Shown here: positions 25,922 through 31,800 of the stretch, in pieces
Position numbering within the stretch: position 1 is the first letter of the stretch
How the letters are laid out: each line of letters starts with the position of its first letter
Assembly (NCBI GenBank): GCA_044356215.1
Contig: JBIKWQ010000035.1
Location: 1 to 31,800 of the forward strand
From: Bdellovibrionota bacterium
GTDB taxonomy: Bacteria > Bdellovibrionota_C > UBA2361 > OMII01
Direction: 5' to 3'
DNA: 31,800 nucleotides
Notes under the pieces: generated by a model
Database searches by the model: none
What the model saw: only the letters and a program-made list of their open reading frames with translations
Told to the model about the DNA's origin: nothing
Program-made: the position numbers and the translations under genes

Positions 25922-26785
25922 CTACGATTCGCCGAGTGAGTTTGAGCTCCAGAAGGCTTCGAGTACAGCGAAGGCTGTAACGACATCCGTGGTCGATAGT
26001 CGAGCCTCAGAGGCCATTCCAGGGAAGTCTGCCTTCCAGTGCGTAGGCGGAGGGACGAGCATTTTGGGCAACGGATGTGTTCCTCGTATGGAGAAGGTAG
26101 CCGCAAGTGCGTCTCGCAGCTGCGCCAAGTCCAGAGCGCCGCGTTCAATCAGGAGCACGAGGTCAACAAGGTCCTTTGTTCGAGTGTTGAGTCGATCCGA
26201 CCACGGAAACGTGTACGCATGCACCTTCTCGGCAAACTGCTGTGCTCTTGGGATAGCTCGCGCCACGGCTGGGGAGATGCCAGCGAACTCAAGTACGTCG
26301 TCCCCGGTAAGTAGCTCCGGCTCACCAACGAGTGGGTCTCCAATTCCAACGTCGATGCCGAATTTGGCATAGGTTTTCCCGACCAGTACAGCTTCAACGG
26401 GAAGTCGACTGCCACCTTTAGGAGCGTTGGCTATCTCGGACTTTAGTTCGCCGATATAAAAAGTCAGAAAATCACCGAGGTCAATTTCAGCAGCAGCCTG
26501 GAGTTTATCGCGCAGGTCTGCGATTGAGTTATTAACAACGAGCGTTATGGATAGATCGATATCTCTCGTTGTTCGCGCACATGGGCGGTAGCGCAAGTCC
26601 ATTGCAAAGCCCCCTTTAAGAAGCCACGGCACGTCCGTAGGCTGGAATAACCGCGCGAGCAATCGTTCCATGACAAACTTCAGTTGCAGAGTGCGAAATG
26701 GCACGCCGCTTCTAGCGGCTCGTGTTCGCAAGCGCTCCTCAAGTGACATCTTGAATGAGATGGCGTCTTTAAATGGCTTACTCAC
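25922..26785 (-). CDS. abiEii: AbiEii-family nucleotidyltransferase toxin (type IV TA)
   Basis: ERLLARL, WLLKGGFAM, RTTRDIDL, AEKVHA, TRTKDLVDL; GTGA overlap with the upstream antitoxin. Confidence 0.9.
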   Translation of the reverse strand: MSKPFKDAISFKMSLEERLRTRAARSGVPFRTLQLKFVMERLLARLFQPTDVPWLLKGGFAMDLRYRPCARTTRDIDLSITLVVNNSIADLRDKLQAAAEIDLGDFLTFYIGELKSEIANAPKGGSRLPVEAVLVGKTYAKFGIDVGIGDPLVGEPELLTGDDVLEFAGISPAVARAIPRAQQFAEKVHAYTFPWSDRLNTRTKDLVDLVLLIERGALDLAQLRDALAATFSIRGTHPLPKMLVPPPTHWKADFPGMASEARLSTTDVVTAFAVLEAFWSSNSLGES

Positions 26786-27393
26786 CGCTTGATTCCTTTC
26801 TGCTTCCTTAATCCCTGAGTCAGTCGCGCCGCACCTGCAGATGTGCGGGCGGCATCCTCTAGTGCTTTTCGGCGGATGAGTCCGCGCTCGATCGCGTCTC
26901 TGACGGCTAGGTTGAGCTGCTCCTGACTAACGCCGCTCGTGGCAGCATCCAGTAGTGTGCGAAGTGGTGTTGTCACAGAGAACCCCTCGCGTTCCTCTGT
27001 CTCGTTGGATTCGAGTGTTGACTTGTGGAGCTTGCAGCCGTTTGGGGCGCGCTTTCGAAACGTTCTGGGGACTGTTAGATGAACGTAGTTGGGCAATATG
27101 TCTGTCAGTTCGTGAAGTGCCAAGGCTGACTCGTGAGAGACAACCGCTTGAGGCTCGTCTTTTTGGTTCCGACTCCAGAAGGTAAGTCGGATCAGATCGT
27201 CATGCTCGGCGACTGGTACGGTTGGAAGACGATAGAGCCCGTGAGCAATACGCTCAAAGTTGCCAACCGTCTCGTGGTAATCGAGGTGGCGGTAGCCATA
27301 GCCTACTGAGGCAGCTTGTTTTGCTGTGAAGTACCCCCCTTGGGTCTGCGCGAGCATGGCGAGCCTGCGTGCTGCTGAATGGGGCGCTTTCAT
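26782..27393 (-). CDS. abiEi: AbiEi-family antitoxin / transcriptional regulator (type IV TA)
   Basis: AQTQGGYFTAKQA, ERIAHGLYRL, VVSHESALALHEL, VTTPLRTLLD. Confidence 0.9.
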   Translation of the reverse strand: MKAPHSAARRLAMLAQTQGGYFTAKQAASVGYGYRHLDYHETVGNFERIAHGLYRLPTVPVAEHDDLIRLTFWSRNQKDEPQAVVSHESALALHELTDILPNYVHLTVPRTFRKRAPNGCKLHKSTLESNETEEREGFSVTTPLRTLLDAATSGVSQEQLNLAVRDAIERGLIRRKALEDAARTSAGAARLTQGLRKQKGIKR

Positions 27394-28067: not shown

Positions 28068-29162
28068 ATGCCATTTAAGCCAAACTTTACGATTACCCCC
28101 AAAATAGCCACCTACCTCATGCGGATTGAGGCCGCCAGACAATCTGTTCAGGATTTGCCGATCACTCCCTCCGTTCTCGCCACGTTACGAGAAACAGCCC
28201 GTTTATTTTCCACTCACTACTCAACGATGATTGAGGGGAACCGACTCACTCAGGAACAGGTGTCGAAGGTGATTGAGGATCATCAACGCTTCCCGGGACG
28301 GGAACGGGACGAAAAAGAAGTGCTTGGGTATTATGCTGCGCTTGAAAAATTGGAGCAGTTATCTGCCTTGCAAGGTGCCGTGACCGAATCGCATATCCAA
28401 ACGCTGCATGCATTGGTGATGGCTGAAGGACGCAAGAGAATAAAGCCCACCCCCTACCGAGATGGACAGAACGTCATTCGTGATAGCCGTAGCCGCCGGA
28501 TTGTCTACATGCCCCCTGAGGCAAAAGATGTTCCGACGCTTATGAAAGAGATGGTTACTTGGATCGCATCCTCTGAGCGCCAGGAATTACCATGCCCTAT
28601 TCGCGCCGGTATCGCACACTATGAATTCGCCACCATCCACCCGTACTACGATGGTAACGGCCGGACGGCGCGACTGCTTACGACGCTCATTCTTCACCTA
28701 GGCGGGTATGACCTAAGGGGCTTGTACTCACTTGAGGAATACTATGCTCGCAATCTCGCCGCGTATTATGAGGCTCTCACTGTCGGCCCATCGCACAACT
28801 ACTATGAGGGACGCGCCAAGGCGAATATTACGCGATGGGTAGAGTATTTTTGTGCTGGCGTGGCAGATAGCTTTGAGAGCGTAAAACGTAGGGCCGCGGA
28901 GGCTGCCAGCAGCGGCGCACACGATCGCTCTTCGGTATTGCGGCGGCTGGATCCCCGCCAGCGCACAGCCCTTGTGTTATTTAAGGAGAGTGATTTCGTC
29001 ACCAGTGGCAAAGTGGCAGAGCTGTTCTCTATATCTGAACGAGCCGCTCGCAATCTGCTTACTGCCTGGGTGACAAGTGGTTTTGTGGTGGTCGCTTCTC
29101 CGGCGAAAAAGAGCCGTAAGTATGAACTTTCGTCAGCCTATAAAGATATTTTCCATAAGTGA
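28068..29162 (+). CDS. Fic-domain protein with N-terminal inhibitory helix and C-terminal HTH
   Basis: HPYYDGNGRTAR catalytic motif; STMIEGN matches (S/T)xxxE(G/N); C-terminal VAELFSISERAARNLL. Confidence 0.92.
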   Translation: MPFKPNFTITPKIATYLMRIEAARQSVQDLPITPSVLATLRETARLFSTHYSTMIEGNRLTQEQVSKVIEDHQRFPGRERDEKEVLGYYAALEKLEQLSALQGAVTESHIQTLHALVMAEGRKRIKPTPYRDGQNVIRDSRSRRIVYMPPEAKDVPTLMKEMVTWIASSERQELPCPIRAGIAHYEFATIHPYYDGNGRTARLLTTLILHLGGYDLRGLYSLEEYYARNLAAYYEALTVGPSHNYYEGRAKANITRWVEYFCAGVADSFESVKRRAAEAASSGAHDRSSVLRRLDPRQRTALVLFKESDFVTSGKVAELFSISERAARNLLTAWVTSGFVVVASPAKKSRKYELSSAYKDIFHK

Positions 29163-29396
29163 ACAACCGTCTCCCCGTAGGGTTATCCTGACGTAGGTCC
29201 CGAAAATTCAAAAGCCGAAGTAATTTTGAGCAGATGCGCTATTTTCAGGCCCGCAACTGCTCTTTTTAGGATTATATGGCTAGGGGCCAGCCAGGGAGTG
29301 ATGCGTTTAATTTAGAGGAGGTTTTGCTATCAAAGGCGTCAGGGAGAAGTGTCGGCAAATCAAAGCGTAAGTGACGTAAACCAATAGGAGGCTAAA

Positions 29397-29915
29397 TTGG
29401 ATTTCACCATCTGGGATGTACTGCTTGGAATTATCTCGTGGAGTATCCGGATCCTGTTCTGGCCCCTTGGCTTTGTAATCAAGTACCGCGAGTTTTTCGC
29501 GACTGTAATCCCCTACCTCGTTACGGGAATAGTAGCTCTGTTCCTTTCTGTCTAGACTCTTGGGCTGCTAGCCATGGTTGCGCAGGCTGTATTCTTTGTG
29601 GTGAGTCTTATCTATCGGTTCTTTAAAGGCTGTTTCCTTCTGGCGTATTCGCTAGTAGCAAAACCAAAGCTCGCAGCTAATGAAGAGTCCTATGACACTG
29701 CAGCACCTCCACCTCAAGACGAATCTGATCCGTATTACATACTTGGAATAGACCGTAGCGTCACCGCTAGGGAACTTGCAGCTCGCTACAAGCAGCTCAT
29801 CAAGGCAAATCATCCTGATAAGGTTGCGCAGCTTGATCCGGAGATTCAGGCTTTTGCGGAGGAGCGATCCAAGAGGATTATCAAGGCGTATGAGGAGGTG
29901 GTGGCGGGGCTATAA
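29397..29915 (+). pseudogene. Membrane-anchored J-domain (DnaJ-like) protein interrupted by an in-frame TAG at 29553-29555
   Basis: AGGAGG then TTG at 29397, 52 hydrophobic codons, TAG, then in-frame continuation into DPYYILG...YKQLIKANHPDKV. Confidence 0.75.
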
Positions 29916-30046
29916 GCCGCTCGGTTTTGACTAGGAGTAATACTATAACCGACAGATTGGGACAGGGGTTGAGTAGCGCAGAGGGTTTGATACCCTATTA
30001 GAGGATAATCAAACTTTAACGGGATTAGCTCTAGGGAATTTTTAAT

Positions 30047-30670
30047 ATGTCCATTCTCGAAAACGCCTACATAAATAATGTTATTGATGTCCGCCCCGAC
30101 TCCGCGAGCGCACAAAACACGTCAGTTGTAACGTTTGGTGCTAATATAGGCCAGGAATCTTTGGTAATGCCGCAAGTAGTAGCTGAGGAGAACTCAGTCT
30201 CAATAGCCAATCATGGATTTAAATTGGTTACATTAGCGGACGGCCAGCCAGGAATAGAGGCTACCATAACAAGGCCAGACGGAAATCAAGTAACGATTCA
30301 GCTCTGTGAAGGAGCTAAGGGTGAGCCGTACGTAGACCTAAAGGAATATGGAAAAAACAATCTCAAAGGGGCAACCCTCATCTCACGCGAAGACTTTGTG
30401 GCAGTGGTAGACAGTCTCTTGAAAGCGATAAAGGGCTTTAGAGTGCCGGACGGTGTTCTCCAAACAGAAGATGAGGCTCTTAAAAAAGCATATCAAATAG
30501 TGACAGAAGGTGTGCGGAGGGACGGAGGTTTCTCGTGGGCCGAGTTCGAATTTGATGACAAGGGCGGTGTTTCTGGTCGTCGCGTTGGCGGCTTCGACAG
30601 CCTCTGGCGCGTCGACGTCTTTCGCGACCGTTGCGCTGCGTTTGTCTCCCCGCCTGCGGAATCGAAATAA
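30047..30670 (+). CDS. DGR target (variable) protein, family not recognised
   Basis: 207-aa ORF whose C-terminal ~31 codons are the VR matching the TR at 31202-31295. Confidence 0.9.
   Translation: MSILENAYINNVIDVRPDSASAQNTSVVTFGANIGQESLVMPQVVAEENSVSIANHGFKLVTLADGQPGIEATITRPDGNQVTIQLCEGAKGEPYVDLKEYGKNNLKGATLISREDFVAVVDSLLKAIKGFRVPDGVLQTEDEALKKAYQIVTEGVRRDGGFSWAEFEFDDKGGVSGRRVGGFDSLWRVDVFRDRCAAFVSPPAESK
30568..30661 (+). repeat. DGR variable repeat (VR)
   Basis: 94-bp ungapped match to TR; 18 mismatches, each opposite a TR adenine. Confidence 0.97.
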
Positions 30671-30707
30671 TTAGATAGTTGATCATTGGTTTCTTGATCC
30701 CCTCTCG

Positions 30708-30765
30708 GACTACGCCAAGGCTACGTCCGACAAGCCGACTCCGCCAAGGCTACGTCTGACAAGCC
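30708..30765. repeat. 29-bp tandem REP-like palindromic repeat (2 copies)
   Basis: GACTACGCCAAGGCTACGTCCGACAAGCC / GACTCCGCCAAGGCTACGTCTGACAAGCC, 2 mismatches. Confidence 0.85.
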
Positions 30766-30845
30766 TCAGGAGGGGTTGGGACTTTGATCATTGGTGCTTT
30801 GATCGAAAATTTTTAAGCTTTAGCCTAGTGGACGGATCTGTTACA

Positions 30846-31122
30846 CTTGTCATTACCTTGGGTAATGACAAGGCGGCTAAGGCTTCCTTGCACCCAAGGG
30901 CTGTTCCCACAGTAACAACTGTAAAGTAAACTTTGCAGGAACTGCCAGAGTCATTGCGTCCAGATGAGGGGCGGCGTAGCCGCCTCTTTTAGATTCAGTG
31001 AGCGTGCAGGACTGTGATGGGAGCAGCAATTCTTGTCCAAGCCTCGTGAGGGGATCTCGTTGGTTGGTATCGGACGATACCAAGGCTGTGAAGCTTAGCT
31101 AGCGGCACCAATCCCCCTCCAC
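30846..31122. ncRNA. Candidate structured non-coding RNA upstream of TR
   Basis: At least six stems found by eye, including nested long-range pairings; no credible ORF; family not recognised. Confidence 0.45.
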
Positions 31123-31201
31123 ATTAAATTCAACCGCGAGAACCGCGTAAAAGCGCTCAAACGGTGGTGGGTCCGTAAGGGCTTGGGCAAAGAGGGCGGG
31201 C

Positions 31202-31295
31202 TGTTTCTGGTCGTCGCGTTAACGACAACGACAACAACTGGAACGACAACGACAATCGCAACAATTGCGCTGCGTTTGTCTCCCCGCCTGCGGAA
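31202..31295 (+). repeat. DGR template repeat (TR)
   Basis: AAC/GAC/AAT-rich core (AACGACAACGACAACAACTGGAACGACAACGACAATCGCAACAAT) with flanks identical to VR. Confidence 0.97.
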
Positions 31296-31312
31296 CTGCT
31301 GTCTCCCCCTTT

Positions 31313-31663
31313 TTACCTCTGCCGAACGCTCTTCATCCACCCTCCAAGCATGCGTCCGATCTCATCGAGCCGCTCTTGGATAGGTACGGCTTTCTTCATC
31401 GGAAGCACCTTTATATCAACCGCAAGTCGCATATACATCCGCAGCATATCAACCTCTGCGGCAAGACCAGTCAATTTCTGAGCTCGTTGTTCAAGAGGCA
31501 GGTACCCCACATGAACAAATCCCTCTAACATCTGAAGGGCGGTCGCCTCAACACGACTCCAGAGGCTGTAACGCTCCATCTTGGGTATACCTTTTTGAAG
31601 GTCGTGTAATATCCGATACAGTTCATACGTTTTGGTGATGATGGGAATGTCTAATTGCTGCAT
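31313..31663 (-). CDS. avd: DGR accessory variability determinant Avd (four-helix bundle)
   Basis: 116 aa; IPIITKTYELY, PKMERYSL, LRMYMRLA, EIGRMLGGWMK; GGAGG SD upstream; lies between TR and RT. Confidence 0.9.
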   Translation of the reverse strand: MQQLDIPIITKTYELYRILHDLQKGIPKMERYSLWSRVEATALQMLEGFVHVGYLPLEQRAQKLTGLAAEVDMLRMYMRLAVDIKVLPMKKAVPIQERLDEIGRMLGGWMKSVRQR

Positions 31664-31675
31664 AGTCCTCCGTTA

Positions 31676-31800
31676 ATGGCTGATATATCCAAGATATTCG
31701 ACGAAATGGTCTCTTCCGAGCGGCTTTTTGAGGCGTGGTACGAATTTAAAAAGGGGAAATCCGCTCGCCGCGATGTTCAAGAGTTTGGCCGCCATGCAGA
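31676..31800 (+). CDS. Probable DGR reverse transcriptase, first 41 codons only
   Basis: MADISKIFDEMVSSERLFEAWYEFKKGKSARRDVQEFGRHA resembles the N-terminus of DGR RTs (LxxAWxxxxKGK...V..F); open to window end; catalytic YxDD not visible. Confidence 0.75.
   Translation, partial: MADISKIFDEMVSSERLFEAWYEFKKGKSARRDVQEFGRHA

Follow-up and report, generated by a model that had tools for sequence, protein, structure and literature searches.

Can a retroelement that rewrites part of a host gene be recognised at the very edge of an assembled contig, and is it still able to do so in the genome that carries it? This question is raised by positions 30047-31800 of a 31,800-nucleotide (nt) stretch of DNA from an uncultured freshwater Bdellovibrionota bacterium (GenBank assembly GCA_044356215.1, contig JBIKWQ010000035.1), hereafter termed the window, which is the whole of contig C123 in a 3.24-Mb, 131-contig, 96.5%-complete assembly (G000). 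An initial annotation, made from the letters alone, had interpreted this region as a diversity-generating retroelement (DGR), and every element that it named is present. We read the locus as a DGR in the order target gene with variable repeat (VR), hairpin, leader RNA, template repeat (TR), avd on the reverse strand and reverse transcriptase (RT), i.e. architecture B3, and place the probability of this reading at about 0.9. It is directly supported by an A-only asymmetry between the repeats, an intact Avd, a DGR-type RT start, a structured leader, a lectin-like fold and strain differences restricted to VR. The element is an ordinary member of the B3 kind typified by the candidate phyla radiation (CPR), lodged in an unusual host and most likely caught shortly after losing its polymerase.

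Template and variable repeats

Direct alignment of VR (30568-30661, plus strand), which forms the last 31 codons before the ..SK-stop of a 207-amino-acid (aa) open reading frame (ORF), with TR (31202-31295, plus strand) is ungapped over 94 nt and resolves into 19 identical positions, a core of 44 nt that contains 18 mismatches and 31 identical positions, exactly as first annotated. An independent repeat search recovered the same 94-nt pair at 81% identity and a spacing of 634. The accompanying claim that every mismatch lies at a TR adenine also holds on realignment: TR carries A at 18/18 of them, and the hypergeometric probability that 18 random mismatches would all land on 24 adenines among 94 positions is 1.5e-14. 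Eighteen of the 24 TR adenines are thus changed in VR and six are unchanged, the changed sites carrying G (8), T (7) or C (3). These sites occupy codon position 1 (n = 8) or position 2 (n = 10) of the 207-aa ORF, and 23/24 of all TR adenines fall on position 1 or 2 in the VR frame. When translated in that frame TR reads VSGRRVNDNDNNWNDNDNRNNCAAFVSPPAE, with abundant AAC, GAC and AAT codons, an Asn/Asp-codon-rich template typical of a DGR.

Homology between the repeats ends right after GGAA (30661 and 31295), i.e. after CCCCGCCTGCGGAA. The sequence following VR is common to all four VR-type copies in the genome, and all three TRs share a different one. Divergence immediately beyond a shared 3' end had been anticipated as the mark of initiation of mutagenic homing (IMH) sites; the divergence itself is borne out, and the naming of IMH and IMH* is a reading of that shared end. 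Together with an inverted repeat found after VR only, the GC-rich 3' end could represent putative IMH-like signals. This inverted repeat (CCCCTC...GAGGGG; 30699-30775, plus strand) starts 38 nt after VR, and its loop holds a 63-nt insert (30705-30767) made of two 29-nt tandem units; the unit has 4 copies in the genome, all within such hairpin loops. The paralogue on contig C64 and an orthologue (L015) have a plain 7-bp hairpin, CCCCTCC-GAA/GCAA-GGAGGGG, with a 3- or 4-nt loop. Among assembled metagenome contigs (Logan), joints that skip the 63 nt at 30704/30768 were seen, with short sides, and may stem from paralogous cassettes.

Logan contig pieces from four lake or freshwater metagenome runs, one of which may be the source sample, carry VR with 0 differences (X1, 29955-30660; X2, 30470-30660; X3, 30516-30660; X4, 30525-30681), and pieces from three of these runs carry TR with 0 differences (X1 and X3, 31170-31294; X2, 31153-31294). 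Their recovery rules out an assembly artefact as the origin of the VR/TR pair, and establishes nothing beyond that. Metagenome contig depth rises to ~350-1900 at 31180-31307, nearly all of it with a 3-nt deletion at 31239, and evidently reflects unrelated abundant sequences matching the (AAC/GAC)n-like TR core, not the window locus.

Avd and reverse transcriptase

The Avd homologue that had been placed after TR was corroborated, and it lies on the minus strand, a point left unstated in the initial annotation and the known B3 layout. This intact 116-aa gene (31313-31663), opposite in strand to TR and RT, matched Pfam bAvd PF22296 (1.4e-18; 67.8 bits against a cut-off of 40) and the NCBIfam equivalog NF033474 DivGenRetAVD (83.7 bits against a cut-off of 80).

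Twelve bases past the avd start codon, an ORF opens at 31676 on the plus strand and runs for 41 codons off the contig end at 31800. It was first described as RT-like, and can now be recognised as the N-terminus of a DGR RT: in tblastn, RTs of relatives match 31655-31798 at up to 75% identity. The last 22 nt of the window equal the first 22 nt of contig C12 exactly, with the RT frame continuing into C12, where PF00078 is matched over positions 9-143 and the motif IGNLTSQ, conforming to [ILV]GxxxSQ, is found. Full RTs in four genomes of the same genus (352-366 aa, with YLRFADD) are 89% identical to the 198-residue C12 fragment over its residues 1-180. Among solved structures, a full-length relative bearing IGNLTSQ and RFADD is matched best by 8ub7_A, a 328-aa reverse transcriptase, at E 2e-38; a group II intron RT reached 4e-20, and group II intron, retron and Drt enzymes all trail far behind. 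None of the non-DGR RT models of NCBIfam scores this relative above its cut-off. We take 8ub7 to be the Bordetella phage bRT. Architecture B3 is defined by this succession, TR (+), avd (-) and RT (+), without further accessory genes.

Target protein and its predicted fold

The target gene (30047-30670, plus strand; 207 aa) bears VR at its C-terminus and matched no Pfam or NCBIfam family. Its homologues (n = 37) are all unnamed or 'hypothetical', and no signal peptide was recognised by eye. The family alignment (A1) is well conserved from residue 56 except for one hypervariable block, which coincides with the codons of the TR adenines and is framed by conserved W, R and CA.F residues.

The AlphaFold (AF2) model of the target has a mean predicted local distance difference test score (pLDDT) of 68.9; residues 54-172 are high, the first 53 residues are poor and VR lies below 50. 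No match at E<=0.001 was returned by Foldseek against the PDB. Comparison of the model with representative structures by VIA-align gave at least 40 of 50 rows with C-type lectin, Link or invasin-type domains by title. Here the top match aligned model residues ~57-206 with the C-terminal domain of Bd2740 (8oks; Z 6.8, root-mean-square deviation 3.1 over 96 residues), and the solved DGR variable proteins TvpA (2y3c) and Mtd (1yu0) aligned with Z 4.4 and Z 4.0; all three Z values fall in a range that the tool calls possibly common, and sequence identity is 7-12%. With moderate confidence, the model suggests a disordered N-terminus of ~53 aa followed by a compact C-type-lectin-like binding domain that would carry VR on its C-terminal face. 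The available text of the Bd2740 report (PMC10769870) describes its tip as a C-type lectin variant on a Bdellovibrio prey-recognition fibre, with a trimer mode matching only Mtd.

The 90%-identity cluster of the window's target (P0001) also contains a 210-aa protein from another assembly (P0159). Between the two, 14/18 columns differ in VR, including three extra codons, as against 4/192 columns outside it, a pattern that marks VR turnover between near-identical strains. A completely different VR in a near-identical strain indicates that diversification was recent.

A structured leader RNA abutting the template

The spacer between VR and TR holds a conserved non-coding leader of ~390 nt (30798-31190, plus strand), predicted to fold as a multi-helix RNA. 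Its nucleotide identity to 2 paralogues (on C33 and C64) and 5 other species, at 74-88%, matches the conservation of the coding part. A 68-aa minus-strand ORF within it (30877-31083) was considered as a gene and rejected, since 1-nt indels in relatives break the frame and show that the segment is not coding. RNAalifold placed 112 pairs on the leader, 11 of them with compensatory changes. No match at E<=1 was obtained in an Rfam search of 29000-31800.

The 3' domain of the leader (31031-31190, plus strand) is a branched RNA that abuts TR. A covariance model built on it (R1; 158 positions, 50 pairs) was searched over 65 loci (474 kb) on both strands and returned 21 matches at E<=0.0076, every one on the RT strand, including loci in Patescibacteria, 'Gammaproteobacteria' and Planctomycetota records of metagenome-assembled genomes (MAGs). 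In the R1 alignment, which was fitted to the model and therefore flatters the pairing figures, 95.3% of cells pair, compared with 39-45% with slid partners; 36/50 pairs change on both sides, compared with 9-14 when slid, and 0/500 shuffles attain the observed values. In 17/17 loci with a mapped TR, the R1 match ends 1-13 nt before TR or, in one case (L040), overlaps it by 4 nt. Covariation across phyla lends independent support to a structured RNA immediately upstream of the template in DGRs of this class. No description of the leader was found in Rfam or in the available text of Wu et al. 2018 or the preprint by Handa et al. It offers a concrete target for the reconstitution of a non-phage DGR.

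A BPP-1-like 'stop duplex' of the TR flanks was also tried as a candidate and set aside: duplexfold gave -39.8 kcal/mol, a value equalled by many shuffles, with controls as good in 90/300 upstream-partner and 147/300 downstream-partner shuffles. Scans of 29900-31800 for promoters (1 promoter-like site vs 1.7 expected) and terminators (4 terminator-like sites vs 2.0 expected) were uninformative.

Sister cassettes in the same genome

Two further template/target pairs were identified, whose cassettes have leader and post-TR sequence in common with the window. TR2, on C64, pairs with VR2 in a 202-aa protein (22 mismatches at TR adenines and a 3-nt indel); TR3, at the start of C43, pairs with VR3 in a protein of at least 763 aa that ends C4 (19 mismatches at TR adenines and a 6-nt indel). 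No other substitution occurs inside either repeat (about 116 and 130 nt), and where TR2 and TR3 differ at non-A positions, VR2 and VR3 each agree with their own TR, which implies that information flowed from TR to VR after these two cassettes had diverged. The accessory genes of the sisters are reduced: on C64 only a 32-residue C-terminal Avd match is left, and on C43 an 81-aa N-terminal ORF with no family match. RT relics are likewise present, internally deleted on C64 and C-terminal on C99. C33 bears a fourth target with a degenerate VR, plus a VR-like chimera.

This chimera (C33 20301-20402; L006 4302-4403) has pre-TR leader before the VR-like stretch and post-VR sequence after it, and its mismatches to the window's TR (TR1) are both A-type and other; recombination between TR and VR, or homing into a TR, would produce it. 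The C4 target (L009 17-2293; at least 758-763 aa) has an N-terminal HExxH-like motif (HEVRH) and no Pfam family, and its last ~200 residues resemble the 202-aa C64 target. In or next to the disrupted avd of C43 (3460-5259) and C64 (L007 2006-3942) stand a 133-aa gene and a ~380-400-aa gene, the latter taken, by eye, for a DUF4143-type AAA ATPase.

Is the element still active?

Several observations weigh against the reading given above. The structural matches of the target are modest (best Z 6.8) and VR itself is of low confidence in the model, while the 63-nt insert in the hairpin loop might impair homing. Ongoing VR variation was not seen, as the contigs of all four Logan runs carry the window's own VR unchanged, in assemblies that drop minor variants and so render within-sample VR polymorphism invisible. 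With PF00078 and with tblastn using the RTs of ten relatives, no intact DGR RT was found in the 131 contigs of the 96.5%-complete assembly, an absence that is limited to assembled sequence since the window contig ends inside the RT gene. Finally, a metagenome contig (L083) reproduces the truncation of the RT on C12 (98.4% identity over 1827 nt), and at its other end window-type sequence 29444-29587 (97%) runs straight into the part from 31702 onward.

The searches can be considered more closely. PF00078 gave 3 matches in the assembly, two of which are non-DGR RTs; one, at C121 8795-9430, lies in a 382-aa ORF that has RYADD and sits at a contig end, the other, at C115 4358-4981, in a 498-aa ORF, and both look group II intron-type. 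The tblastn search yielded only C12 (residues 43-222), the two N-terminal starts of the window and C43, and the short relics on C64 and C99. Extending the sequence had been proposed as a way to confirm a full RT with YxDD, and it gave none: the sole continuation, C12, follows the RT of intact relatives to nt 541/542 (~codon 214-222 of ~352), then diverges and stops, ahead of the catalytic YxDD box. The RT starts of the window and C43 differ at 19/310 positions, the last at 31693, and the last 127 nt of C43 are identical to the first 127 nt of C12.

A 27-nt RT pattern retrieved three metagenome contigs, L083 and L081 among them. Being an independent contig with the same break, L083 shows that the C12 truncation is real, and its structure ties the truncated RT to a window-type locus. 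The variant lacks 2.1 kb (29587 | 31702), comprising the target, VR, leader, TR, avd and the first 9 RT codons, and fuses a DnaJ-like ORF in frame to the RT remnant. L081 comes from a relative with 89.5% identity to window 30768-31800, and its RT reads through the breakpoint into YLRFADDCLFLAPSRH. When longer proteins were searched for an intact RT of near identity, the best reached 78%; this search also missed known 89% relatives and therefore carries little weight. In the X1 run, depth is 26.6 for the RT 5' piece vs 14.5 for the target piece, which hints at two copies, but depth is no copy number. On balance, the cassette's own RT is probably the truncated C12 copy; in that case the element has either died recently or depends on an RT copy outside the assembly.

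One explanation holds that the whole DGR system of this genome is dead and that the A-only pattern is too young to have acquired other mutations. The C12 truncation with its confirmation in L083, the RT relics on C64 and C99, the avd remnants on C43 and C64, the population variant devoid of target, TR and avd, and the degenerate VR-like chimera on C33 all speak for it. It has to accommodate the lack of any non-A substitution in the 94 nt of the window pair and in the ~116 and 130 nt of its two sisters, a window Avd that is intact and above its curated cut-off, and a strain that is ~98% identical outside VR with a wholly different VR; we give it a shade better than an even chance. The initial annotation had remarked that the element would be a relic if the ORF at 31676 were not an RT and no DGR RT existed in the genome. 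That ORF is the start of an RT and no intact DGR RT was found in the assembly, which makes the relic scenario a live possibility.

Alternatively, the element could still be fully active, with an intact RT copy that was left unassembled or unbinned serving, together with the window Avd, all three leader-TR modules in trans. Such a copy would account for two RT 5' ends (window and C43) where one continuation (C12) was assembled, and for three TR/VR pairs free of non-A substitutions although two of them adjoin a disrupted avd; the agreement of each VR with its own TR at the TR2/TR3 non-A differences, and the read-through RT of the related L081 population, point the same way. The 131 contigs hold no second RT continuation, the longer proteins gave no full-length RT closer than 78%, for what that search is worth, and L083 links the truncated RT to a window-type locus. 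We regard full activity as possible, short of even odds. That the locus is no DGR at all, being a diverged direct repeat, gene-conversion tract or assembly artefact, has in its favour only the low-complexity (AAC/GAC)n TR core that attracts deep unrelated contigs at 31180-31307, and is so improbable in view of the adenine restriction (P 1.5e-14), the Avd and RT start adjoining TR, the arrangement conserved in other species and the VR and TR pieces found unchanged in separate runs as to need no further discussion. The locus, read as a B3 DGR, provides a natural snapshot of DGR decay: three pristine template/target pairs beside truncated RT and avd genes, plus a cassette-deleted population variant.

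Proposed mechanism

For this B3 DGR, the Bordetella phage element suggests by analogy the following course. A plus-strand RNA comprising the folded leader and TR would be bound by an RT-Avd complex; TR would be reverse-transcribed with random nucleotides placed opposite its adenines; and the resulting cDNA would replace VR, the shared GC-rich 3' end and the downstream hairpin acting as target signals. The predicted outcome is that 14 codons, which hold the 22 adenines of the 44-nt core, are recoded at the binding face of a small C-type-lectin-like protein; 13/14 of these codons differ from TR in the present VR.

It would be a reasonable inference, on the same analogy, that the upstream leader domain does the scaffolding and sets the cDNA end. 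A wider proposal is speculative and, taken as a whole, unlikely to be right: that the ~160-nt domain 5' of TR, in the window as in B3 DGRs of the CPR type from several phyla, is the counterpart, on the other side of the template, of the phage's Sp RNA, docking RT-Avd and setting the cDNA end, and that a single RT/Avd set, put together from parts of decaying cassettes, acts in trans on three leader-TR modules, each with a target of its own, diversifying lectin-like proteins akin in fold to Bdellovibrio prey-recognition fibre tips.

Neighbouring genes

Upstream of the target lies a gene for a DnaJ-domain membrane protein (29397-29915). At a codon that reads TGG in its paralogue on C33, which is 95% identical, this gene has an in-frame TAG, which splits it into ORFs of 52 aa and 113 aa; the same TAG occurs in L083. 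The gene was considered as a conserved partner of the DGR: it stands beside the window and C33 targets, but not in the cassette of genome G021, and is hence not a fixed part. A ~77-nt element with an internal hairpin (29200-29277) gave 49 blastn matches on 34 contigs, often near contig ends, and looks like a small dispersed repeat or a miniature inverted-repeat transposable element.

Further upstream, the minus strand carries an AbiEi-type antitoxin-like gene (26782-27393), and a gene of the Fic/DOC family whose C-terminus bears a helix-turn-helix (HTH) lies at 28068-29162. Genes of toxin-antitoxin or defence type are abundant around the window DGR, C12 and L026, and C12 also has a 433-aa ORF, HipA-like by eye, and a small HTH gene.

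Distribution among related genomes

Searching 61 genomes (60 related ones and G000) with the C12 RT fragment gave matches in 24, including G000; of the 34 other genomes scored in the window's genus, 13 had an RT match. The four same-genus relatives with full RTs have records mostly titled 'MAG: Bdellovibrionota bacterium'. Outside the host's order, the nearest RTs (41-52% identity) belong for the most part to Patescibacteria, to a Nanoarchaeia MAG and to MAGs of 'uncultured Gammaproteobacteria'. A quick tree unites the nine RTs from the window's order in a single clade (SH-aLRT 100) adjoining the Patescibacteria, Nanoarchaeia and 'Gammaproteobacteria' RTs, in a sampling without the 'core-set' DGR RTs that cannot show nesting within CPR.

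The TR/VR pairs of 7 relatives have 14/14, 13/13, 11/11, 16/17, 18/19, 12/15 and 14/18 of their mismatches at TR adenines. The VR-spacer-TR arrangement is also present in 10/12 more distant loci examined. From start to start, VR and TR are 534-600 nt apart in the 7 relatives, and about 370-600 nt apart in the distant loci. A literature search found no paper linking DGRs with the phylum Bdellovibrionota, and 'Bdellovibrio' is absent from 11/13 supplementary files of Roux et al. 2021, the searchable ones.

Comparison with known systems

The prototype DGR, that of phage BPP-1, has the order mtd-avd-TR-Sp-brt. The window element resembles it in the adenine-specific transfer from TR to VR, the pentamer-type Avd family, an RT type with SQ motif and YxDD, the GC-rich shared 3' end with a GC hairpin after VR, and a target of predicted C-type-lectin fold with a C-terminal VR. 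It departs from BPP-1 in being chromosomal, with a target that is not a phage tail gene, and in a hairpin that stands 38 nt after VR with a 63-nt loop insert. A further departure concerns the RNA. The available text of a preprint on BPP-1 (bioRxiv 10.1101/2023.10.23.563531) describes a ~140-nt Sp RNA after TR which, plus 20 nt before TR, wraps bRT; in the window the inverted avd between TR and RT leaves no obvious room for an Sp RNA, and a conserved folded RNA precedes TR instead. With regard to the diversified protein, the target model aligns structurally with TvpA, Mtd and Bd2740 alike, and differs from those solved proteins in having neither a fibre nor an insert of the FGE-sulfatase type (FGE, formylglycine-generating enzyme).

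The closest likeness is to the DGRs of CPR. According to the available text of Wu et al. 2018 (PMC5758913), architecture B3, 'TR-(avd)-RT' with avd reversed, accounts for 90% of their CPR set and is all but missing elsewhere. The window shares with these elements the order TR, reverse avd, RT with the target upstream on the RT strand, a small target of no named family with a short C-terminal VR, and a leader domain which, built from the window's genus, is found directly before TR in CPR-type loci. It differs from them in its three paralogous leader-TR-VR modules within one genome, among decaying avd and RT copies, and in its host, which is Bdellovibrionota, not CPR. The window DGR leaves the definition of a DGR unchanged, and extends the CPR-type layout to a Bdellovibrionota lineage with genomes of ~3 Mb.

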